Shown here: positions 2,619 through 63,680 of the stretch, one piece after another
How the letters are laid out: each line of letters opens with the position of its first letter
How positions within the stretch are numbered: position 1 is the stretch's first letter
Source of the DNA: a virus
Direction: 5' to 3' (one strand)
Virus record (IMG/VR): IMGVR_UViG_3300045988_181536
Coordinates: 96,001-160,000 of that record
Length of the DNA: 64,000 nt
Made by a program: the position numbers and the translations under genes
Notes under the pieces: model-generated
The model's input: the letters and a program-made list of their open reading frames with translations, nothing else
The model's database searches: none
What the model was told of the DNA's origin: nothing

Positions 2619-3125
2619 ATGACTAAAAAATTAAAATTGGCCTTTTGGCTAACAGATAAAACCCTAGCTATGAAAATAGAGGAACAAGCCGGTTTGCCCC
2701 ATTTTAAAGAAACAGGGTTTGTGAGAATTAAAAGTTCACCTTATCTTGAAGATTGGGGGATTTACCTAAGGGGCAATTACTGGGCTGCTGATAATCAAGT
2801 TGTATCAAAATGTTTTATCAGCAACGAAGAGCGCGACGCCTATTTGCATAAGGTTATTAATGCAATCACGGACGAGCTTTTCACGGGCGAAGGAGAATTG
2901 AAAGTTGGTGAGATGTGCGAGGTGAAAGATGGGGAAGTTGGCGATTGGGAAAAAAGGAAGCTCATAGCAGTTCTTCCAGCGCAATACAGAGAGCGATTCA
3001 TTGTTGAATGGGAGGATTGCCCTACTGAGCACGCTTCTTGGACTTACGCCCGCCCAATAGCTAAGCACACAGAACCCACCGTTGAGGAGTGCGGAAACGT
3101 AGTCACCTACATTTGGGAAAAATAA
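2619..3125 (+). CDS. hypothetical protein
   Basis: ORF, no recognisable motif. Confidence 0.3.
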   Translation: MTKKLKLAFWLTDKTLAMKIEEQAGLPHFKETGFVRIKSSPYLEDWGIYLRGNYWAADNQVVSKCFISNEERDAYLHKVINAITDELFTGEGELKVGEMCEVKDGEVGDWEKRKLIAVLPAQYRERFIVEWEDCPTEHASWTYARPIAKHTEPTVEECGNVVTYIWEK

Positions 3126-11001: not shown

Positions 11002-14000
11002 ATGAAATCTTTAGAAACAATTCTCGCAAAACAAAATTTCGACGATTTACAAGTACAGTTTTATTCTCCTGGGAAACAAACTGTGTTACTTGAAGCATCA
11101 AAAGCTACTGTAGATTATTTGGTTAACTTTAGTAAGTCGGCACTGCCCTGCAAATGGATTACGGGAATTTTTTCTACTTATGAAGAAATAAAATCAGACG
11201 TATCACATGAATCTATTGGGCTTTTCTTTAAAAAGTACGACATAATAACAAATGCCAATTTACTTGAAATAAATCTTCGCAGTTTAACACACGGAAAGAC
11301 TTATTTAAATGAATTTGAGGTAGATTTGTGTTTCAATTATAATAAGCCTTATTGTTTGTTTCCTGAATTTGGGCGTCTAATATATGCATGTTTTACGCAA
11401 ACCATACAAATAAAACGTGACATTATAAATTATCTATTAAATCATTGTTATATAAAACTGCATAGTGTATGTAGATCAAATGCTTTAGAACGTCAGGATG
11501 CTTTGTTTTGTCAAGATTGGTTTGGAAGTAAACGTTTGCAAGAGAGGAATGCATTAACTCCCTTTCAAGGATTAAAAATTTGGCCTAAACTTGATAAGTA
11601 TTATTATAAATTTAATTATCATAAAGCTAAAAATTTTTCTCCTTATATTATAACTAAAATTTACAGTGAACACTTTGATCTTGAAATTGAAGTTGATAAA
11701 ATAGCTTCTTTTATTATAAATGTAGACCCTTCGACCAACAATGTGGAAACATTTCGTGAGTCTGCAGGAAATAAGATAAGTAATTTACTTCAAGAAATAT
11801 CCGATAAGTTTTCAAAAAAACTATTTGAGAACAAAAAATATATTAAACTCTTTAAAAAAGCAGAAAAACATCTCATTTTTGTTCCTAATTTTACTTCTAA
11901 ACACTTATTAAATAATACAGAACACACTAAAGAAGAAATTTTAAATTTTATTTTATTCGGCCTTACAAACAGCTGGAATGAACTAAATTCTTATGGAGTA
12001 CCCAGTGTAAGTTTACGTAATTATCAAAGTCTTGCGGAACCTATAAGATTTAAAGAAGACTATGTTCGCAATTTAATAAAAGTTATTTGTGAGTTTATAT
12101 CGTTACTTTCCGACATGTACAGTAGTGTTAGAAGTATCACAAAGGCTCTGCAGTGTTTTGATTGTGTAAAAAGTTATCTTGATTTTATTGACCATATACT
12201 AAACAGTTATAATAACAAGTTAAACCGTTTTAAAGGTATAAGTTTAAATTGCAAAATCTTTTACGCTATTCCTGACAGTAAATCAGATATCTTCTATGCA
12301 GAATGGTTACAAGGCATTGATCAAAACAAAGAAACTTATACAAAAAAGTATAATTTTAACATTTTCTCCAATTTATTTGATGTTACAGCTTTTGTACCAA
12401 AATATATTGATTCAAGTTTACAAGAATTTAAGATAAAAAATCTTGCGGAAGTATTAAGCATCAATACTGTCACTCGCCAAACGCTAAATACCTATATGGA
12501 AAGCAATCTTCCTATATGGGGAACCTTGTCTGAAAATATATTTCTCTCACCTCCACTTAGTTCAACTGTATCTCTGAACTTAAAACGCTCGTACAGTATT
12601 TCAAATCTGATATGCAACACTTTGTCTAATCCTGATGACCGTGTTTATTCAGAGTATGCAAGAAACTTGTTATTTTCAGAGACAACGAATAATAGTTTCT
12701 TTACGCTTACTACAAAAGAACATAGAAGTCTTGCAACTTATATTAAACCGCACGATGTAGAGCAATATTCAGTGTCTCCGATATTTAATTGGGATAAAAT
12801 AATATATTCACAAACTAAATATCAAGTTTCTACTTCACCAAATTTTTACTGTATAAATGCTAATCCAAATGAAGATCATATTAGTTGCGAATTGCCATTA
12901 TACAATGATACACTTACTGAATGTTATGGAAAATTTTATCCTATTATAAATCAAATCGACATTCCGGTATGGTATATACCAGGAAAAGTCATTCATAATC
13001 TTACTCGTTATTGCGACAATGGTATTGGATCAACATTTTTTACAAATGTTAGAAATCTGGTTATTAAATATTTGTGCGATGGATCAAATATCATAGATCA
13101 ATTATTTTATTTGGCTGTGAATCGAGAGGAGAGTGTGCTTACATCCTCTTTTGAAGATTACGTAATCGAACAAGCGCTGACCCATCCGTTGGTTCAAAGA
13201 CCATGGAATGAGTTTTTTGCAAAAAAACTCCGCAATAAAAAACCCAGTCCTCCAAATATTGTAAAGATTAATACAATTGTCAGCATTAATGGAAACTCTG
13301 TAACATCAAATGATGAGATCTTGGATTTTATTGAATCTAAAAATTTAGCACAATATTTTGAATTATATCGTAAAAATATTCAAAAAAATTGCCAAGATTT
13401 AGATGATTTAATTGAGAAAAAAAATAACTTATTGCTTAAAGTAGCTAAATATCAAACAGATATTCTTAATAAAATTAATCAAAATAATGGAATTGATTTG
13501 TTTAAATCCTGCGACGAAACGCTGAAAGCTTCTTGGATGAAACAAATCAATTTGTTGCAGCAAAACAAACGTATTATAAGCATTAATTTTGATCTGGTTA
13601 ATAAGCGTTTGGAAGTGGTTTTTAAACCGAAAAACATTGTAGATCCACGTACGGACATTGAATATGATATAGGTACAATTGCTGTATCTTGGCCTTTAGA
13701 TATAAATTTTAATGGTTGTATTAATCCTATATTGAATGTACACAATCAACTTAAAGTTTACTCTAAAAATATTAATCTGGAGGAATTTGGAAGTCTTTGT
13801 AGTCAAATTACTTCTTTAGATAATACGGAAATTGTTAACTTAGTGGATCAGTTATTTGAACCTGTGCACATTAAAGAAGCAAAGAATGTATTGTCAAGGA
13901 ATACACCAACAACGAATTTAACAATTTACGGAGAAAAAGCTGTACCTCATAGTTATCCGGAAGGGTCAGGAAGCGTATGTTTTGGAAACTACTCTTCAGC

Positions 14001-14919
14001 AATCAATAAAGCTGCAGAAGAAGTCAATCTCATGAATTTGGCAGGATTGACAATGTTAAATGCTGAATCTGCAAATTTAAAAGACACTTGGGGTAAAAGC
14101 TTACCCATGTTTCAAATCGCTGCGGGAAAATATTCAACCTTAGATCTTGCACAAAAAACATTTGAAAGGAAATTATTACGTAATAAAAAATACATTATTC
14201 CGGAATTAGGTAATCCTGATACCTATGTGCCGCATGGTCTTGATGCCATACAAGCTATGTTAGTAGCATGCACCAATAATACATGGCCTAAATTCTATAC
14301 CATTTGGGAAATTAATAGTAATGCTTACATGATAATACAATTTTTAAGCAACCTGTATAAAAGGATAGAACCTTACAGGGCTAATGCACGTGAGCTTGTA
14401 AGAAAGTTGTTTAAGGAAATTTGTGCGCGTATATATAAACCATTTACAGATCAAGAGCTTGAAGATTTAAATGCAAAAACTAAATTTAAATTTCAAGACT
14501 CCTCTATATGGAGATATATAACACGTGAAAATACAGATATTGACGTAGATAAGTGTAAACTATTTACAACAGATTATTCTTTAGAAGAATATTTTAATAA
14601 GTATACATTTAACTATAGTAGCTATGAATATTTAAACAGTTTGAAAGATTATGTAGATCTTGATCCTGAGAAAATGGAGCAAGTATTTGAAGAAAGTATT
14701 GAATGTGTTGTAAGAAATTGTTTATTCTATAAAGGTGATTATGAAGTGAAAAGATTTATGCCAAGACAGATTTTAGAATTTGAAGATCTAATTTTTGGCA
14801 AAGATTTTTACTTAATTGAAACAAACGATAAACATTATAATTTCTTGCTAAGAATTTGTAATAACTATTCATATAAAAGTATTACTGTAGAAGTTTTAAA
14901 GTTATTTAAAAAATCTTAA
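11002..14919 (+). CDS. giant hypothetical protein (1305 aa), compositionally atypical (very AT-rich, N/K/Y/I/F-rich)
   Basis: Uninterrupted 3.9-kb ORF. No catalytic motifs recognised. GC is markedly lower than in the flanking genes. Confidence 0.5.
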   Translation: MKSLETILAKQNFDDLQVQFYSPGKQTVLLEASKATVDYLVNFSKSALPCKWITGIFSTYEEIKSDVSHESIGLFFKKYDIITNANLLEINLRSLTHGKTYLNEFEVDLCFNYNKPYCLFPEFGRLIYACFTQTIQIKRDIINYLLNHCYIKLHSVCRSNALERQDALFCQDWFGSKRLQERNALTPFQGLKIWPKLDKYYYKFNYHKAKNFSPYIITKIYSEHFDLEIEVDKIASFIINVDPSTNNVETFRESAGNKISNLLQEISDKFSKKLFENKKYIKLFKKAEKHLIFVPNFTSKHLLNNTEHTKEEILNFILFGLTNSWNELNSYGVPSVSLRNYQSLAEPIRFKEDYVRNLIKVICEFISLLSDMYSSVRSITKALQCFDCVKSYLDFIDHILNSYNNKLNRFKGISLNCKIFYAIPDSKSDIFYAEWLQGIDQNKETYTKKYNFNIFSNLFDVTAFVPKYIDSSLQEFKIKNLAEVLSINTVTRQTLNTYMESNLPIWGTLSENIFLSPPLSSTVSLNLKRSYSISNLICNTLSNPDDRVYSEYARNLLFSETTNNSFFTLTTKEHRSLATYIKPHDVEQYSVSPIFNWDKIIYSQTKYQVSTSPNFYCINANPNEDHISCELPLYNDTLTECYGKFYPIINQIDIPVWYIPGKVIHNLTRYCDNGIGSTFFTNVRNLVIKYLCDGSNIIDQLFYLAVNREESVLTSSFEDYVIEQALTHPLVQRPWNEFFAKKLRNKKPSPPNIVKINTIVSINGNSVTSNDEILDFIESKNLAQYFELYRKNIQKNCQDLDDLIEKKNNLLLKVAKYQTDILNKINQNNGIDLFKSCDETLKASWMKQINLLQQNKRIISINFDLVNKRLEVVFKPKNIVDPRTDIEYDIGTIAVSWPLDINFNGCINPILNVHNQLKVYSKNINLEEFGSLCSQITSLDNTEIVNLVDQLFEPVHIKEAKNVLSRNTPTTNLTIYGEKAVPHSYPEGSGSVCFGNYSSAINKAAEEVNLMNLAGLTMLNAESANLKDTWGKSLPMFQIAAGKYSTLDLAQKTFERKLLRNKKYIIPELGNPDTYVPHGLDAIQAMLVACTNNTWPKFYTIWEINSNAYMIIQFLSNLYKRIEPYRANARELVRKLFKEICARIYKPFTDQELEDLNAKTKFKFQDSSIWRYITRENTDIDVDKCKLFTTDYSLEEYFNKYTFNYSSYEYLNSLKDYVDLDPEKMEQVFEESIECVVRNCLFYKGDYEVKRFMPRQILEFEDLIFGKDFYLIETNDKHYNFLLRICNNYSYKSITVEVLKLFKKS

Positions 14920-15335: not shown

Positions 15336-15407
15336 TCCCAGGTAGCTCAGCGGTAGAGCGGACGACTGTTAATCGTTTGGTCGATGGTTCAATCCCATCT
15401 CTGGGAG
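15336..15407 (+). tRNA. tRNA-Asn (anticodon GTT)
   Basis: Cloverleaf read by hand. Acceptor 'TCCCAGG/TCTGGGA', D-arm 'GCTC-AGCGGTA-GAGC', anticodon stem 'GACGA/TCGTT' with loop 'CTGTTAA' (GTT), T-arm 'GATGG-TTCAATC-CCATC'. CCA is not encoded. Confidence 0.85.
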
Positions 15408-18268: not shown

Positions 18269-20584
18269 TCAGAATACAAAGGCTTTCCTTATTTCATCCA
18301 TCAAGTTATTATGGTTTTCCCTAATGGTATTTGCGCATACCTGAAGATAAGCGGGATACCACTTAATGTTGGATGTGCCCTTTGATACAACATTTTTCAT
18401 CCAAGAAGTAAAGTATCCTATAAAAGATACGTGGTCAATTGCATTCTTGAAATCCTTAAAGCAATCGGCATATAAGCTGCCTTTTCCGGTGCCGAAGGTT
18501 TTATGTACAGCCAAAGCTACAGCTTCAAAGATTTGTTGAATATAGGGCGTTTTGTCACAATGACCTTCAGCCATTTCAGTAAACAATATTTGCAGAATAT
18601 TTGACAAATGGTCATAAATCGCAGCTTTATCTTTGCAACGGAAACCTAAGAAACGGGTATTTATAGGTCCTTGATAAAGCGGATGACCTTGATAATCCGG
18701 CAGATCATTCTCTACAGGCATATTGTTAATATACTCCACAACCTTTGGAGGCAGCTGATCTAAATTTCGCAGAAGACGCAGTGACTGCATGCTGTGAATT
18801 AAGCGCTTGGGGAACAACGCCCTGCTTTCATGACCGAATAAGTCGCAAATCCTAAGTTTCTCTTCCATAGGAATGCTGTTATATTTTTCATGTCTGCAAA
18901 GATAAGAGCACATGCTCCTATGCCACCAGTTAGGCATAACATCCGCCTTTACATTCGGATTTTTATTTAACTGATCCGCGTGTAAAATCTTTTGATAATC
19001 ATTTATAAATTCATCCAACAAAGACTTAGGTTCAGGAATAGATCCAGGGAACAAAGCGTCCTCTGCCATAATAACTTCAAGCGTAGGACGGAAACGCTGT
19101 ACTTTGCCTATGCTGCGAACATTTTTCCGAAGTTCTTTAAGTTCTTCAATGGCCTCATTTAAATCTATTTCATATTCGCTTTTATTTATTCCAGTCCAAG
19201 CATTTCCTGGCTGAATAGGAAATACCTTTTCAGGTTCTTGATTTAACCTTGCGGCCTTTTCTGCAATTGCCTTCTGCCTTTGTTCGAAAATGGTTATGCT
19301 GTAATCTATTGCTTCCTGAATGTCTTTAATATGGTTGCTGCGACGTTCCAGAGATTTAAAAAACCTAAACGGAGCCAAATAAACCGCATGCAAAGATTCG
19401 CTTAAAAATCTATAACTCATCACTGAAGAGAATTGTTTTTCAGGACGAATATATTTTCCAAGATAACGCTTGCTTATGGACTTAAGATCCTTTTGAAATC
19501 TTTCCCATTTGCGGCATTTATCCGCTTGAATTGTATCCTCTAAAGATTCTGTGCCCTGGGGCTTGGCTGGAGGAGACCATTTGAGGGCTTTTCTGTCCAC
19601 CTCCATATAGTCTATTATGGTTTTATTGGAATCATTTCCTGTATGTGCGCTGCAAGCAACTCTAAGTTCATTCAACATCTTCCAATAGCTTTTTTTGCAG
19701 AATCTGCCACCCATAGAATTGATAAGATTCTTAAGATAAAGAATATTGGGAAGATGATGCTGTATATCACCTTCTCGCTTACGTTCTAAATCAAGATAAA
19801 GCGAATGATAAAACTTGGTTCCGTGAAGCTTATTGGATATGAACTTGAAATTCATCATTACCGCCATATTCGGATTTGACGGGCAATAATCCAAAGACAT
19901 GTCTAAGAGATGAAGCGCATGTGTATCTGCCAAGGAGCAATGATTGTAATTGGCATATTGTATGCGCTTTAATTGAGGATTATAACCTGCAAAAAACTTA
20001 ACAGACTTAAGCCCCCTTTCTGGAACATTGCAACGACGATCAGATAAAGTCCAGCCGTAACCGTTGGTGGCTTTAGGGTTTTTTTCAGCCCATTCCTTCT
20101 CAAGCTGTGCTCTTTTCTGAGCACGTTCCTTTGCCTGTTGCTCCTTTTTTAAGGCTGCTTCTTTTTCCAGCTTTTCCTTTTTTAAAGCCTCTTCCTTGGC
20201 CTTTCTTCTCTCTGCAAGCATCTGTTGATAGATTGCTCTGCCTTTTGCAATAGCTTGTCTTCTACGCTCTCTGTCTTCTTCGGAGATATTTAAAGGCTTA
20301 GTGACTTTGTAACCCTTGGGGCGTCGAAAACGATATTTGTCCAACTTGGCTTTAGCTAATTCTAAAACTTTTTCTGAAACCGTATATTTCCTCTTGCCAG
20401 TTTTCGTGGCTCTATCTGCAGCCACTAAATTCATGCAACATTGTACTAAAGTTTTTTGATTTGCTTTAAGCTTATCTTGATCCAAACGTCCAGTTCCACC
20501 CCCGCGAGCTCTGTGCACCTTCTCGTTCAGGATGCTCTTAGACATATCGCAGTATTCTTCTGTATTACCAATAGTTGTTGCCAT
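18269..20584 (-). CDS. hypothetical 771-aa protein with a Lys/Glu coiled-coil segment; the only large minus-strand gene besides tnpB
   Basis: 'KAKEEALKKEKLEKEAALKKEQQAKERAQKRAQLEKE' coiled coil. No catalytic motif recognised. It is transcribed divergently from the 1.2-kb non-coding hub. Confidence 0.5.
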   Translation of the reverse strand: MATTIGNTEEYCDMSKSILNEKVHRARGGGTGRLDQDKLKANQKTLVQCCMNLVAADRATKTGKRKYTVSEKVLELAKAKLDKYRFRRPKGYKVTKPLNISEEDRERRRQAIAKGRAIYQQMLAERRKAKEEALKKEKLEKEAALKKEQQAKERAQKRAQLEKEWAEKNPKATNGYGWTLSDRRCNVPERGLKSVKFFAGYNPQLKRIQYANYNHCSLADTHALHLLDMSLDYCPSNPNMAVMMNFKFISNKLHGTKFYHSLYLDLERKREGDIQHHLPNILYLKNLINSMGGRFCKKSYWKMLNELRVACSAHTGNDSNKTIIDYMEVDRKALKWSPPAKPQGTESLEDTIQADKCRKWERFQKDLKSISKRYLGKYIRPEKQFSSVMSYRFLSESLHAVYLAPFRFFKSLERRSNHIKDIQEAIDYSITIFEQRQKAIAEKAARLNQEPEKVFPIQPGNAWTGINKSEYEIDLNEAIEELKELRKNVRSIGKVQRFRPTLEVIMAEDALFPGSIPEPKSLLDEFINDYQKILHADQLNKNPNVKADVMPNWWHRSMCSYLCRHEKYNSIPMEEKLRICDLFGHESRALFPKRLIHSMQSLRLLRNLDQLPPKVVEYINNMPVENDLPDYQGHPLYQGPINTRFLGFRCKDKAAIYDHLSNILQILFTEMAEGHCDKTPYIQQIFEAVALAVHKTFGTGKGSLYADCFKDFKNAIDHVSFIGYFTSWMKNVVSKGTSNIKWYPAYLQVCANTIRENHNNLMDEIRKAFVF

Positions 20585-53500: not shown

Positions 53501-53842
53501 ATGATTAAAGAACTCGAACTAAAAGCTCCGAAAGGAAAAATTATTGTTAGGCAGCTGCAAGCTGCGGAGATGGAACGTGAAGGGATTATTATCCCAGCAG
53601 GTAAAACTTTTTATAATAAAGAGGCTTTAGTGATTTCCATAGGAGATATGGATAATGGTGAATTTAAAGATATAAATTGTAATAATAAAAAACGTAAAAA
53701 TATTTTAAAAGTTGGAGATCATGTATTGTTAAGCTTTATGCCTGTTGACAGATATGAAGCTTTAGGTCCTGACAATAAGCGATATTTTTATGCTACTATT
53801 AATCCCTGCCAAGTCCTTTTAATAGGACAAAACTTTGCTTAA
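53501..53842 (+). CDS. GroES-like co-chaperonin (T4 gp31-like candidate)
   Basis: The 113-aa size and the pattern 'LKAPKGKIIVRQL...EREGIIIPAG......LKVGDHVLLSFMPVD' match the GroES 'L.PL.DRVLVK...E.KT.GGI.LP......VG.GD.V.F..Y.G' beta-barrel signature. Confidence 0.4.
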   Translation: MIKELELKAPKGKIIVRQLQAAEMEREGIIIPAGKTFYNKEALVISIGDMDNGEFKDINCNNKKRKNILKVGDHVLLSFMPVDRYEALGPDNKRYFYATINPCQVLLIGQNFA

Positions 53843-57099: not shown

Positions 57100-58380
57100 A
57101 GAAATTCATATTCTATTTAGTCAACTACTAATCATACAAGCTGATTAGCTTGTAACTAGGTATTACTACCCGCTACAATAGGCTTGTTGACGGAAGCCCG
57201 AAAGTTATTTGCTATATTGATAGCTGCATTTAAATCTGCATTGCATTCAAATCCACATTTCTTACACTTGAAATGGGATTGTGTAGTTCGATTGCCTTTA
57301 ACGGTATACCCACATCTACTGCATTTTTGCGATGTATAACGAGCATCAACGTGTTGAACACTACAGCCCTTAGCTAATGCTTTGTATGTTAGGAATTGCT
57401 CTAGCTGGAAGAAACTCCACGAATTTACTTTAGCCCTTTCGGACTTTCGCAATTTGCTACTACGATCTCTAATACCATCTAGTTTTTCAAGAACTATAGT
57501 AGTACCGGGAACGCACATAGAAACAATATTCTTACTAATACAATGATTCATATCCGTAACGAAACGGTTCTCCTTCATACTTAATGTACGGAGGTGTCTT
57601 TTAGCGGATTTAGAACCCTTGGATTGTAGTTTGGATCTTAAAATAGCATAGCGTTTCTTTACTTGTAGAACATGTTCTCCAGAGAAGATAGTACCATCAG
57701 ATAGTGTAGCTATATTGACTATGCCTCGATCTATACCGAGTACATTATCATTGGAACATTGCACATCCTCAACCTCCTTCTCAAATATGATGTGTAGGAA
57801 TAATTTGCCTTTCTTTAATGAGAGTGTAGCACCTTTCCTACGCCACGAGAAGTATTGTTTAAAGTGGTCTGTTAGATTTACTTTAAATCGTAATCTACCA
57901 TTCAATGTTAGGATAGAAACCTCGAAACGATCGAACCATATATTAAAGGAGTTCTTAGTTAATCTTAAAGCCATTTGTTTGGATTTAGGACATTTGAATT
58001 TCTTATGTTTCTTTCGTTCTAGTTTCGTAGTGGCTTTGATGGCTTCCGCTGCCTGATCCCGAACTTGTGTAGCGAGATCAGCTGGTAGTGAGAATTGTGT
58101 TCTACAATAATCATAGGTTTGATCGTGAAGCTTTCGTTTATCAAAATTACGATCCTTGAAACCTATTTCACAAATATAGTTATACGCCTCAGTATAGGCT
58201 CGAAATGTAGGAAGTAAATCGGTAGGATTTACGTTCTCTAGCTTAAGCTTTACTGTGCGGAGTAATTTCATTTAATAGTTAATATATTCATATATTAATA
58301 TAATAATGTCAACAACAAATACTTCAAAACACTAAACAATAGAAAGGAGACTTCCGAAATTCCTTGCAATAGACAATCTA
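57100..58380 (-). mobile_element. solo IS200/IS605-family (IS1341-like) element encoding TnpB only; boundaries approximate
   Basis: A minus-strand tnpB lies in an otherwise plus-strand region. A hairpin 'caagctgattagcttg' (57138-57153) sits directly 3' of the tnpB stop. Nested hairpins 'ccgaaattccttgcaatagacaatctattgcgtatcctttcgg' (~58345-58390) sit on the 5' side. No tnpA is present. Confidence 0.55.
57156..58271 (-). CDS. tnpB: TnpB (OrfB) RuvC-like RNA-guided endonuclease family protein
   Basis: RuvC-I 'GIDRGIVNIATL', RuvC-II 'IVLEKLDGI', zinc finger 'CSRCG...CKKCG', RuvC-III 'NADLNAAINIA'. Confidence 0.85.
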   Translation of the reverse strand: MKLLRTVKLKLENVNPTDLLPTFRAYTEAYNYICEIGFKDRNFDKRKLHDQTYDYCRTQFSLPADLATQVRDQAAEAIKATTKLERKKHKKFKCPKSKQMALRLTKNSFNIWFDRFEVSILTLNGRLRFKVNLTDHFKQYFSWRRKGATLSLKKGKLFLHIIFEKEVEDVQCSNDNVLGIDRGIVNIATLSDGTIFSGEHVLQVKKRYAILRSKLQSKGSKSAKRHLRTLSMKENRFVTDMNHCISKNIVSMCVPGTTIVLEKLDGIRDRSSKLRKSERAKVNSWSFFQLEQFLTYKALAKGCSVQHVDARYTSQKCSRCGYTVKGNRTTQSHFKCKKCGFECNADLNAAINIANNFRASVNKPIVAGSNT

Positions 58381-59603: not shown

Positions 59604-60161
59604 ATGAAAAAGTATAACATTATTTACGCTGATCCTCCCTGGACATATCAAGATAAGAACTGTCAAGGTGCTTGTGCCCGGCATTATAAAACAATGACGG
59701 ATTCCGAATTACAGTCACTTCCAATTAAAGATATAGCTGCGGATGACTGTATATTGTTTATGTGGGCTACGTATCCCAAACTAAAAGAAGCCCTAGATGT
59801 GATTGATGCTTGGGGATTTAAATATAAAACCATAGCTTTTCAGTGGATAAAACAGAATAAATCTGGAGACGGATTATTCTTTGGATTAGGAAGGTGGACC
59901 AGAGGCAACAGTGAACCTTGTTTATTAGCAATTAAGGGTAGACCTAAAAGAATCAGCCCAAAGGTATCACAGATTGTGTTTAGTCCATTACGCAATCATT
60001 CGCAAAAACCTGATTGTGTAAGAGATAAAATTATAGAACTAGTAGGTGATTTGCCTAGAATAGAATTATTTGCTAGAAATAAAGCTGATGGTTGGGATAG
60101 TTGGGGAGACGAAATAGATTCTGATATCAGCTTTGACTTAAACGATAACAATAAGGAGTAA
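59604..60161 (+). CDS. MT-A70-family DNA N6-adenine methyltransferase
   Basis: 'IIYADPPW', 'ILFMWAT', 'WGF', 'GRWTRGNSEPCLLAIKG', 'HSQKPD', 'ELFAR...GWDSWGDE'. Confidence 0.85.
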   Translation: MKKYNIIYADPPWTYQDKNCQGACARHYKTMTDSELQSLPIKDIAADDCILFMWATYPKLKEALDVIDAWGFKYKTIAFQWIKQNKSGDGLFFGLGRWTRGNSEPCLLAIKGRPKRISPKVSQIVFSPLRNHSQKPDCVRDKIIELVGDLPRIELFARNKADGWDSWGDEIDSDISFDLNDNNKE

Positions 60162-60166
60162 AAAAT

Positions 60167-60391
60167 ATGCCTGATTCAGTTAAGAATAGTGTGTCCATAG
60201 GAAGATGCCCAAGGTGTCATTCTGAGAATGTAGTTTATGACAAAGAATTCGTAGATGATGATTTGTTAATATTTCCAGGTAGATGCCTGGATTGTGAATG
60301 TCAATTTAATGAGAGGTACTTCCTGGATTACCTCGATACGGAGTATATAGATACAGAAGACAACGAAGAATCTAACGCAATAAAAGAATAA
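60167..60391 (+). CDS. small zinc-ribbon protein
   Basis: 'CPRCHS ... CLDCEC'; SD 'aaggag' upstream. Confidence 0.35.
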   Translation: MPDSVKNSVSIGRCPRCHSENVVYDKEFVDDDLLIFPGRCLDCECQFNERYFLDYLDTEYIDTEDNEESNAIKE

Positions 60392-61987: not shown

Positions 61988-62224
61988 ATGAATACATATC
62001 AATTACGTTTTAATTGTACAGCTACGGAATTATATTCCGGAGATGCCACAGTAAGGGCTAACAGCTTGGAAGAAGCTAAAGGAAAGCTAGAAGAAGTATT
62101 ACTTGCAGGAGGTAGTGACTCCGAAGATGTCCAATGCGTGTATGATTGCTACGGAGAAACCTGTGAAGATACTTTTCAGGTTGATTATATTGACGAAGTG
62201 AAACCAGAGGAAGATAACCAATAA
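61988..62224 (+). CDS. small acidic protein, paralog of 63468-63680
   Basis: Shared pattern Y-x3-F-x7-G-x3-(V/I)RA-x-S-xEEA-x5-E between the two proteins. Confidence 0.4.
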   Translation: MNTYQLRFNCTATELYSGDATVRANSLEEAKGKLEEVLLAGGSDSEDVQCVYDCYGETCEDTFQVDYIDEVKPEEDNQ

Positions 62225-62260
62225 TTTAATATAAAACCCAAACAAAAGGAATAAAATATT

Positions 62261-63394
62261 ATGGAACAAAAATACTATAAAATTTTAACTTCAAAAAATA
62301 CCTCGTTTGAAAGAGGGTTTGATTACACCCCCTATCTCCCAGAGAATGGAAAGCCAGGAAAGGAAACACCATTTATTATGAACCCGATTCCCTGTAGTAG
62401 AGGGTATCATGTTACGCCTAATTGGTTAAAGTATTCAAGAGTACGAGATCTAGATAATATAAAAATATATGAGGTTGAGACTATCGGCGAGTCATTTGAT
62501 TTGCCATTTAATTTTGGAAAAGAACCTGCTTTTATAATTTCATGTAGTTCAATTCGTTTTTTGAAAGATGTCACGTCTGAATGTAAAACCTTATTGAAAC
62601 AATTCAAGGAAAAGAACCAAGGTTCATTTAACCTAGGCGAGAATAACACAGGAGACGCAAACGAAGGAGATTATAATACAGGATCCGCAAATACGGGTAA
62701 CCATAACACTGGAAATTTTAACTCAGGTTCATACAATTCTGGGTGTCATAATACGGGAAATAATAATACGGGAACTGCAAATCTTGGGAATTACAATGCA
62801 GGCACTGGCAATATAGGTGATAAAAATTGCGGAAGTTTTAATGTTGGTTCTTTTAATGTTGGGGACTTTAATATAGGAAATCGTCATGTTGGATATTTTA
62901 ATATAGGTGTCTCTAATATTAAAATGTTTAATAAAGAAATAGATATTCTTCCAGAAGACATACAGTTTCCGCGTTGGATAACTGTAGATGATCCGTTTTC
63001 ATTTATGTTTAGTAAGAGGGAATTAAGATCGCGATTTGAAAACGCAGATAGTGACGACATCTACCGTACAATTAATCTTCCTAACTTTAACTACGCTATC
63101 TTTGAGAAAATAACTGGTATCTCAAAGGAAGATATTGATAAGAAATTAAGTTGGGTTACTCTTAAGGAAAGTGCATTAAGTGAACATAAAAAAATTAAGG
63201 TAAATCTTAATGAAGACTTTACAGAGCTAAAGCCTTGTCCATTTTGTGGTAGCAAGAATATAGAATTAAGTGCTGAAGAATATTATGATAAAGACGTATT
63301 TTACATTGTTTCTTGTAATAACTGTGGGGCTAAGATCGAAGGCTCCGGCAGAAATAAAGAAGCTGCAGAAGCTTGGAATACAAGGTGTGAATAA
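62261..63394 (+). CDS. fusion protein with ~19 consecutive 5-residue (pentapeptide-like, N-x-G period) repeats and a C-terminal Lar-like restriction-alleviation zinc ribbon
   Basis: 'ANEGD YNTGS ANTGN HNTGN FNSGS YNSGC HNTGN NNTGT ANLGN YNAGT GNIGD KNCGS FNVGS FNVGD FNIGN RHVGY FNIGV'. C-terminus 'KPCPFCGSKNIEL...YIVSCNNCGAKIEGSGRNKEAAEAWNTRCE' resembles the Lar family 'CPFCG...C..CGA....EEAI.AWNRR'. Confidence 0.55.
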   Translation: MEQKYYKILTSKNTSFERGFDYTPYLPENGKPGKETPFIMNPIPCSRGYHVTPNWLKYSRVRDLDNIKIYEVETIGESFDLPFNFGKEPAFIISCSSIRFLKDVTSECKTLLKQFKEKNQGSFNLGENNTGDANEGDYNTGSANTGNHNTGNFNSGSYNSGCHNTGNNNTGTANLGNYNAGTGNIGDKNCGSFNVGSFNVGDFNIGNRHVGYFNIGVSNIKMFNKEIDILPEDIQFPRWITVDDPFSFMFSKRELRSRFENADSDDIYRTINLPNFNYAIFEKITGISKEDIDKKLSWVTLKESALSEHKKIKVNLNEDFTELKPCPFCGSKNIELSAEEYYDKDVFYIVSCNNCGAKIEGSGRNKEAAEAWNTRCE

Positions 63395-63467
63395 ATGTTA
63401 ATTTAGGTCTACACAAAACAACAGATTAATGCTCAAATTTTAAAACATAAGAAAGGAAAAATAAAAA

Positions 63468-63680
63468 ATGGAAAAGGATTATTTGGTTGAATTTCACTAT
63501 TCTCAGGAAGTTATTTGTACAGGACAGGTTGTTATACGTGCTAAGTCTAAAGAAGAAGCTGAACGTATTGCTTATGAGAAAGATTATGACTGCGAATTTG
63601 ATGACATAATTGATGATCCAGAAGTTGTAGCAAGTGATTTTGTTATTGAGAGCATCAGTCCTTTAAGCGATGACAAATAA
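63468..63680 (+). CDS. small acidic protein, paralog of 61988-62224
   Basis: See 61988-62224. Confidence 0.4.
   Translation: MEKDYLVEFHYSQEVICTGQVVIRAKSKEEAERIAYEKDYDCEFDDIIDDPEVVASDFVIESISPLSDDK

Follow-up and report, generated by a model that had tools for sequence, protein, structure and literature searches.

A phage pentapeptide-repeat protein with a fused Lar/RalR-type zinc ribbon as a possible two-activity counter-defence factor

We report a computational analysis of an open reading frame (ORF) at positions 62261-63394, and of its neighbors, in a 64,000-nt stretch of viral DNA (positions 96,001 to 160,000 of the IMG/VR record IMGVR_UViG_3300045988_181536; hereafter "the window", meaning this whole stretch). 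The ORF encodes a protein in which a zinc ribbon of the Lar/RalR family follows a head domain related to DUF7666, a rod of N-x-G-x-x pentapeptides and a helical cap. Because a complete Lar/RalR ribbon has been gained, we regard the product as a probable counter-defence protein; more specifically, and tentatively, we favor the interpretation that it is a two-activity ("polyvalent") factor, with the Lar/RalR module tethered to a widespread head-rod-cap phage protein. An initial sequence-only reading of this region had noticed the repeats and the Lar-like C-terminus and had interpreted the protein as an anti-restriction or anti-defence decoy that mimics DNA; the observation is confirmed here, while the interpretation is partly supported. 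Each domain comes from a known family; the combination, the ADP-ribosyltransferase (ART)-like fold of DUF7666 and the cellular homologs in Opitutales appear to be unreported.

Domain architecture of the fusion protein

The ORF is complete, with an ATG start preceded by AGGA 10 nt upstream, and encodes 377 amino acids (aa) plus stop. A search of 5.8 billion proteins yielded 228 relatives, of which the close ones were assembled into a 33-sequence alignment. The following features were delineated:

62261..63394, + strand: fusion ORF, comprising a DUF7666-like head, a Pentapeptide_2 solenoid, a helical C-module, a linker and a Lar/RalR zinc ribbon
62261..62608, + strand: N-terminal domain (aa 1-116), divergent DUF7666 with K7, C45, G48 and H50 kept; the model is ART-superfamily-like
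62615..62914, + strand: 20 pentapeptides of the N-x-G-x-x type at aa 119-218, assigned to Pfam Pentapeptide_2 and predicted to form a thin beta-solenoid
62915..63148, + strand: conserved C-module (aa 219-296), defined from alignments A1 and A2; helices predicted at aa 252-311
63149..63220, + strand: hypervariable interdomain linker (aa 297-320), 42% mean identity among seven fused copies; partly low-confidence model
63221..63391, + strand: Lar/RalR four-Cys zinc ribbon and C-terminal helix (aa 321-377), assigned by PF14354 and by identity to RalR and to phage Lar proteins

Overall, the protein is slightly acidic, with a net charge of -7. The full-length model built from the 33-sequence alignment has a mean predicted local distance difference test score (pLDDT) of 76, with helices at aa 252-311 and a low-confidence stretch at aa 308-319. 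Sequence searches linked neither the head nor the whole protein to a solved structure and returned only chance hits to antibodies. The DUF7666/ART-like head, the helical C-module and the Lar-less homologs from phages and Opitutales described below had not been part of the sequence-only reading.

The C-module, which corresponds to the cap, starts with an MFNK motif directly after the final repeat, continues with helices and terminates with LPNF[DN]xxIFxxITGISKxDF. It has no counterpart among Pfam families, and it is found in all Lar-less homologs (alignments A1 and A2).

The C-terminal Lar/RalR module

The Lar-family character of the C-terminus, noticed in the initial reading, is supported by three comparisons. 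Residues 321-375 match Lar_restr_allev (PF14354) with 46.7 bits against a cut-off of 28.6 (E-value 3.9e-12, profile positions 1-57 of 58), PHROG 599 ("Lar-like") is matched with an E-value of 1.6e-13, and BLASTP against Escherichia coli K-12 RalR/Lar (b1348) reports 38% identity over 56 aa (E-value 4e-12, RalR residues 3-53 of 64). The conserved CPFCG...CNNCG...AAEAWNTR motif represents a four-Cys ribbon followed by the WNxR helix, and the module is modeled as three strands and a helix (aa 334-374). Its identity to stand-alone phage Lar proteins is 35-47%.

The seven fused copies retain ~90% identity in each of the four domains, compared to a mean of 42% in the 24-residue linker, hence the fusion is real and selected, with Lar on a flexible tether. 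In another protein (P0067, 210 aa) a nearly identical Lar module is preceded by 115 aa of unrelated sequence and followed by a tail of 40 aa; Lar thus behaves as a mobile module that is shuffled within this phage group.

Lar has been reported to alleviate restriction and to enhance modification (King & Murray 1995, as cited in PMC4041452). RalR (formerly Lar, 64 aa, from the Rac prophage) is reported to act as a toxin with non-specific DNase activity within a type I toxin-antitoxin pair (PMC4041452), and its RefSeq annotation says the same of the DNase toxin.

The window encodes a further small four-Cys zinc-ribbon protein of 74 aa (60167-60391, + strand), directly after an MT-A70 methylase gene, with a sub-threshold match to Lar (E-value 0.011); the pair of genes is kept in the related locus L004.

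The pentapeptide-repeat rod

Residues 119-218 comprise 20 contiguous pentapeptides in a single register, with Gly at position 3 in 20/20 and Asn at position 1 in 19/20 units, mostly T, I or V at position 2 and mostly F, Y or A at position 5. The run is thus as uninterrupted as initially described, with the count corrected from about 19 to 20; the longest run found in 2000 shuffles of the protein was 2 units. The repeats match Pentapeptide_2 (PF01469) with 79.8 bits against a cut-off of 26.4 (E-value 1.3e-22). In the Pfam search with the 377-aa protein no match at E<=1 was found for PF00805, PF13576 or PF13599, nor for the PPE domain (PF00823), in whose place the protein has its DUF7666-like N-terminus. 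The PHROG matches are in agreement, with phrog_14105, a family of unknown function, besides phrog_599.

Published AlphaFold analyses describe PF01469 as a solenoid of 10-residue coils, although no experimental structure of a Pentapeptide_2 solenoid exists (PMC9663297), and four predictors concur on this family (bioRxiv 10.1101/2024.10.30.621056). In our full-length model the repeats (pLDDT 72-86) form a beta-bridge every five residues. The window copy has a 10-residue deletion relative to its six closest relatives, which equals one predicted coil, and the number of repeats is ~18-23 throughout the clade.

Qnr/MfpA-like DNA mimicry, which the sequence-only reading had proposed on the basis of a quadrilateral beta-helix, was considered and rejected in view of the Pfam family, the repeat consensus, the fold searches and the charge. 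Its profile check found Lar_restr_allev and a pentapeptide family, the latter being PF01469 and not of the PF00805 type, while its structural check, the AlphaFold model, matched thin beta-solenoids and no DNA-mimic beta-helix; a Foldseek search of the PDB with the full-length model returned only weak matches to zinc ribbons (TFIIS, Elf1, NrdR). The central Gly and the predicted 10-residue coil do not agree with the PF00805 type, a right-handed quadrilateral beta-helix made of 20-residue coils. A net charge of only -4 over the 100 residues of the repeat region makes the rod an unconvincing mimic of B-DNA.

The sole tRNA found in the window is tRNA-Asn (GTT; 15336-15407, + strand); the repeat protein of the same phage is itself very rich in Asn.

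The N-terminal head domain

The head of the window protein does not match DUF7666 (PF24703) directly at E<=1, and among the 33 close relatives only two match at E<=0.01 (best E-value 1.4e-5). However, the hhalign comparison of the N-terminal domains of the clade with those of bona fide DUF7666 proteins identified the relationship with a probability of 94.7% (E-value 5.9e-8, 89 columns), and a profile built from the clade and DUF7666 heads retrieved 111 PF24703 proteins among its top 142. The near-invariant residues of DUF7666 (GYK...C..GFH signature) are present in the window protein as K7, C45, G48 and H50.

The head modeled alone (pLDDT 87.5, predicted template modeling score 0.82) resembles folds of the ART superfamily, including BC2332-like and CC0527-like proteins (PDB 2aua, 2jqn), DarT, Arr, Tpt1, diphtheria toxin, RES and Rhs toxin domains. 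BC2332 and CC0527 are classified in SCOP as ADP-ribosylation families d.166.1.6 and d.166.1.7 (PMC3000352). The model therefore supports an ART-like fold of the head; no relation to any ART family was detected at the sequence level. In the window protein H50 lies within GYHVT and E71/E73 within YEVE, the Glu positions being variable across DUF7666.

The superfamily of such heads comprises at least 4851 clusters at 50% identity, in which the head is nearly always N-terminal. Among the top 142 head proteins 67 have Pentapeptide_2, while others carry Imm5-like, HEAT, MORN, LRV, DUF4116 or classical Pentapeptide repeats. The superfamily combines a constant head with a variable repeat region.

Distribution of the family

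The full architecture, including Lar, is limited to seven clusters at 90% identity, with 83-94% identity and derived from independent samples and assemblers, all of them from 160-177 kb gut phage contigs; the contigs of relatives span 72-177 kb. The next group consists of ~30 proteins of ~300 aa (38-46% identity) that lack Lar and align over residues 1-296; these Lar-less homologs share the three modules, namely the ~105-aa N-terminal domain, the repeats and the C-module. In remoter matches, PF24703 precedes the same repeats and cap. In IMG/VR, 309 stretches match the family. Some of these lie on large contigs that are connected to the window by a TnpB of 94% identity or by other common gene families, yet have Lar-less copies of ~40% identity. 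The closest Lar-less homologs are lone chromosomal genes in gut Opitutales (~35 genomes, including cultured isolates), with 37-43% identity over aa 1-296. Head, rod and cap are found together in hundreds of phage contigs as well as in Opitutales chromosomes, whereas Lar was acquired in a single lineage of gut phages of 160-177 kb. With regard to the host, the GC content is 35% in the window and 44-53% in the Opitutales loci, and a scan of IMG/VR for close relatives gave nothing.

Several family members depart from the common arrangement. In P0031 (304 aa) an N-terminal part from ThyX is followed by the last two-thirds of a homolog of the Opitutales type; this protein is either a true deletion fusion or an assembly chimera. 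P0040 and P0041 contain two tandem units of repeat rod and cap per protein, P0041 being headless, and some phages have two to five tandem paralogous genes (e.g. L076 2796-4894).

Genomic neighborhood

The window covers a region of replication and nucleotide metabolism of a large, uncultured gut phage, with genes for DNA polymerase, ribonucleotide reductase, helicases, an SbcC-like protein, an exonuclease, ThyX, an MT-A70 methylase and TnpB. The features closest to our subject are:

59604..60161, + strand: orphan MT-A70 DNA methyltransferase, on the strand of the fusion gene and 2.1 kb upstream
61988..62224, + strand: small acidic protein, 78 aa, net charge -14, member of a clade-specific paralog family
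63468..63680, + strand: second small acidic protein (70 aa, net charge -13), distantly paralogous to the one of 78 aa
63670..64000, + strand: partial downstream ORF without a family match

In addition to the MT-A70 methylase of the window, which bears on a counter-defence role, genes of counter-defence families recur near members of the family. In the related loci L001 and L003 a Tad2-like gene (PF11195; L001 7449-8081) lies two genes downstream of the fusion gene. In the viral locus L057 a homolog, a stand-alone Lar gene (PF14354, E-value 6e-10) and a methylase candidate, the latter identified solely by a DPPY motif in the translation, are located within 3 kb on one strand, and in L114 a homolog has a Lar gene ~0.5 kb downstream. 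The L076 clade encodes a protein with a Tad8 domain (PF25189, E-value 7e-16; L076 4916-5557) directly after a tandem pair of homologs. Genes of anti-Thoeris families (Tad8, Tad2-like) adjoin homologs in unrelated phages. The scan of the 58-64 kb segment for promoters and terminators yielded counts at chance level, and the survey of polyvalent proteins PMC5512222 mentions neither Lar nor pentapeptide repeats.

The two small acidic proteins that bracket the fusion gene had been regarded as paralogs and possible partners of the fusion protein. They are indeed paralogs, albeit distant ones: their direct comparison is weak (9/28 identities, pairwise E-value 5e-4), but homology is established via intermediates (the 78-aa protein to a 79-aa protein of L001, E-value 4.6e-10; the latter to the 70-aa protein, 1e-3; the 70-aa protein to L001 1934-2173, 8e-35). 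The idea of dedicated partners fares worse, as they are part of a multi-copy family (43 clusters) that does not extend beyond this phage clade, and its members are found at varying positions. The 78-aa gene keeps its position upstream of the fusion gene in L004, while its copy is truncated in L001 and L003; the orthologs of the 70-aa gene in L001 and L004 directly follow ThyX and do not lie beside the fusion gene; and in L001 a third type of acidic protein follows the fusion gene. The flanking genes are better viewed as independent accessory genes than as fixed partners. On size and charge composition alone, the acidic proteins would be more plausible decoy candidates than the repeat rod. The partial downstream ORF, suggested to be part of the same cassette, probably lies outside any conserved cassette, because its position in L001 and L003 is occupied by the Tad2-like gene.

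Other genes of the region deserve mention. ThyX is found near the fusion gene in the phage clade of the window, and in other phages, too, homologs repeatedly have a thymidylate synthase gene as neighbor. TnpB (57156-58271, - strand, in a region otherwise on the + strand) combines OrfB_IS605 with a Cas12f1-like TNB domain; a 94%-identical TnpB is found in L061 (6949-8064), 2 kb from a Lar-less homolog, and the element seems to circulate among these phages, since its close relatives were found only on phage-sized contigs. The window also encodes a GroES-like co-chaperonin (53501-53842, + strand; Cpn10, E-value 9e-6) and a 168-aa protein (2619-3125, + strand) of which a viral contig of 173 kb has six paralogs in tandem (L065 6022-8855; 35-78% identity), an expanding gene family of unknown function. 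Two long ORFs of the replication block (11002-14919, + strand, 1305 aa, and 18269-20584, - strand, 771 aa) have no PHROG match at E<=1e-5.

Proposed function and alternative explanations

In the explanation we favor, the gene product would be a cytoplasmic, non-structural phage protein, formed by the addition of a fourth module to an existing three-module protein that consists of a DUF7666-type head with an ART-like fold, a rod of ~20 N-x-G-x-x units and a helical cap, with Lar attached via a flexible, fast-evolving linker. The Lar module could act like the Lar protein of Rac, i.e. alleviate type I restriction and favor the methylation of incoming DNA; alternatively, it may bind and cut DNA, in line with the reported activity of RalR. 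The body made up of head, rod and cap would add a second activity or a targeting function, and may engage the partner of the cellular Opitutales homolog.

A number of observations weigh against this two-activity counter-defence role. H50 is replaced by Tyr in 17 of the 26 Lar-less relatives (alignment A1) and the classical catalytic Glu of ARTs is not conserved; hence, we consider the ART-like fold supported and make no claim of an active ART. Our literature search for DUF7666 found nothing, and no functional data were found for any protein that combines DUF7666 with Pentapeptide_2. Lar-type ribbons could be generic nucleic-acid or protein-binding modules. The Opitutales homologs sit between housekeeping genes and have no conserved neighbor in 36 loci (the commonest one occurs in 9/36), on account of which the head-rod-cap body may have a cellular role other than defence. 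Adjacency to Lar is seen in just 2/80 viral loci, models of defence systems in PADLOC gave nothing significant, and the Pfam tally of 150 neighboring ORFs is made up mainly of unannotated small ORFs or ordinary early, replication and nucleotide-metabolism genes; it includes thymidylate synthase, TnpB, methylase, Tad8, ERF and HNH, with no dominant anti-defence family. As most of these neighbors are ordinary or unannotated, the context is suggestive and its support modest; the setting is compatible with anti-restriction.

Among the alternatives, the one with the greatest weight, which we nonetheless consider somewhat unlikely, is that the protein plays no part in defence and its body has a cellular function common to the Opitutales homologs, for instance as a fixed-length scaffold or a regulator, for which the phage copy substitutes or with which it interferes, the ribbon being a generic binding or oligomerization module. 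The lone homologs in ~35 Opitutales genomes, the repeat number held at ~18-23, as would befit a spacer of set length, and the mostly ordinary early genes around the phage homologs all agree with such a role. On the other hand, the alignment of the C-terminal module covers almost all of Lar/RalR and its Pfam score exceeds the curated threshold, which argues against a generic ribbon, the family is overwhelmingly phage-borne, and Tad2-like, Tad8, Lar and methylase genes are recurrent neighbors. It is rather improbable that the protein is a DNA-directed effector or toxin for host takeover, in which a RalR-like module binds and nicks DNA, the ART-like head carries out a DarT- or Arr-like modification of DNA or of a host protein, and the rod serves as a spacer. 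Such a role would fit the DNase activity reported for RalR, the founding Lar protein, the resemblance of the head model to toxin and ART folds, and the conservation of K7, C45 and H50 in the window copy, but the head has neither a sequence-level link to an ART family nor an evident conserved catalytic Glu, no candidate antitoxin or immunity gene is conserved next to it, and the homologs on chromosomes stand alone, an unusual arrangement for a toxin.

Of still lower weight, and in our judgment very unlikely, is the proposal that the repeats form a Qnr/MfpA-like quadrilateral beta-helix that imitates B-DNA and lures restriction enzymes with the aid of the Lar ribbon. The perfect pentapeptide register, the net charge of the protein and the link of Lar to type I systems speak for it; against it, PF01469 is matched and PF00805 is not, the repeats are Gly-centered and lack the inward Leu/Phe of A(D/N)LXX, the predicted coil of 10 residues is about half of the 20 of the Qnr type (PMC9663297), and, apart from the weak charge of the repeats, copies differ by a 10-residue indel. 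Finally, stand-alone Lar genes near homologs in other phages make it conceivable that the fusion is a read-through join of two genes caused by an assembly error or frameshift, or a decaying pseudogene; this is effectively refuted by the recurrence of the same fused ORF in the seven independently obtained clusters and by the conservation of both halves, with the linker alone being variable.

Implications

The Lar fusion together with the Tad2-like, Tad8 and methylase neighbors provides the first testable lead, pointing to counter-defence, for a large unstudied family of head proteins. Very little is known about the mechanism of Lar, and the fusion indicates that the module may be able to act while tethered. 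The window protein is also a soluble, non-mycobacterial candidate for the 10-residue-coil Pentapeptide_2 fold, and should be easier to handle. With respect to annotation, "pentapeptide repeat" alone does not imply a Qnr-like DNA mimic. As a long shot, we speculate that DUF7666 heads represent an overlooked, highly divergent branch of the ART superfamily, used as phage effectors on a minimal Pentapeptide_2 solenoid, in which case the window protein would combine an effector with Lar anti-restriction in one polyvalent factor, and the Opitutales copies would be domesticated, catalytically degraded descendants.

Comparison with known systems

Qnr, MfpA and AlbG (PF00805) have the five-residue periodicity and the beta-solenoid in common with the window protein, but belong to another Pfam family and form 20-residue coils from A(D/N)LXX repeats with a central Leu/Phe, whereas the window repeats have a central Gly and a predicted 10-residue coil; the window rod is weakly charged and shows no structural match to these proteins. 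Mycobacterial PPE-MPTR proteins contain N-x-G-x-x Pentapeptide_2 repeats with a predicted 10-residue-coil solenoid, as does the window protein. The likeness is limited to the repeats (rows P0104 and P0110), as the window protein lacks the PPE domain and the type VII secretion context.

The head is similar in its predicted fold to BC2332-like and CC0527-like proteins, Arr, DarT and Tpt1, but the relationship is undetectable in the sequence, the domain is much smaller (~105 aa), and the H-Y-E or R-S-E triad of the ART superfamily is not evident. The small acidic ORFs share with the DpnD/PcfM proteins (PF14207) a beta-beta-alpha-like "...V.A.S.EEA..." core; three members of the acidic family, among them the 70-aa protein, match PF14207 with E-values of 0.003-0.09 (best score 17.9 bits), all below the Pfam cut-off of 25, and their own family is confined to the clade.

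Phage proteins with DUF7666 and Pentapeptide_2, such as gp048 of Rheinheimera Barba phage (annotated as "pentapeptide") and those of ~130 kb Clostridioides difficile phage and plasmid-like contigs, have the same head-rod-cap arrangement and the LPNFDxxIFxEITGI motif. They are placed among small early genes and are devoid of Lar; a direct match to PF24703 is obtained with their heads, while that of the window protein is connected to it by profile-profile comparison only, and many of them have a longer cap with an MTEEEK...TTGGYLK insert. The Opitutales homologs (Intestinicryptomonas porci, Puniceicoccaceae Marseille-Q1082, Ca. Merdousia) have heads of the window's subtype, marked by the FDYxPYLP insert, and a comparable number of repeats, but they are cellular and without Lar; within the Lar-less set of alignment A1, to which these chromosomal copies belong and in which Tyr often replaces H50, most sequences also lack C45.

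Lar/RalR of the E. coli Rac prophage exhibits the same CPFCG...CxxC(G/E) ribbon and (E/A)xWNxR helix as the C-terminal 57 aa of the window protein. The difference lies in the context: Lar/RalR is a free protein of 60-110 aa, whereas the module of the window protein is a C-terminal appendage of an unrelated 320-aa protein.

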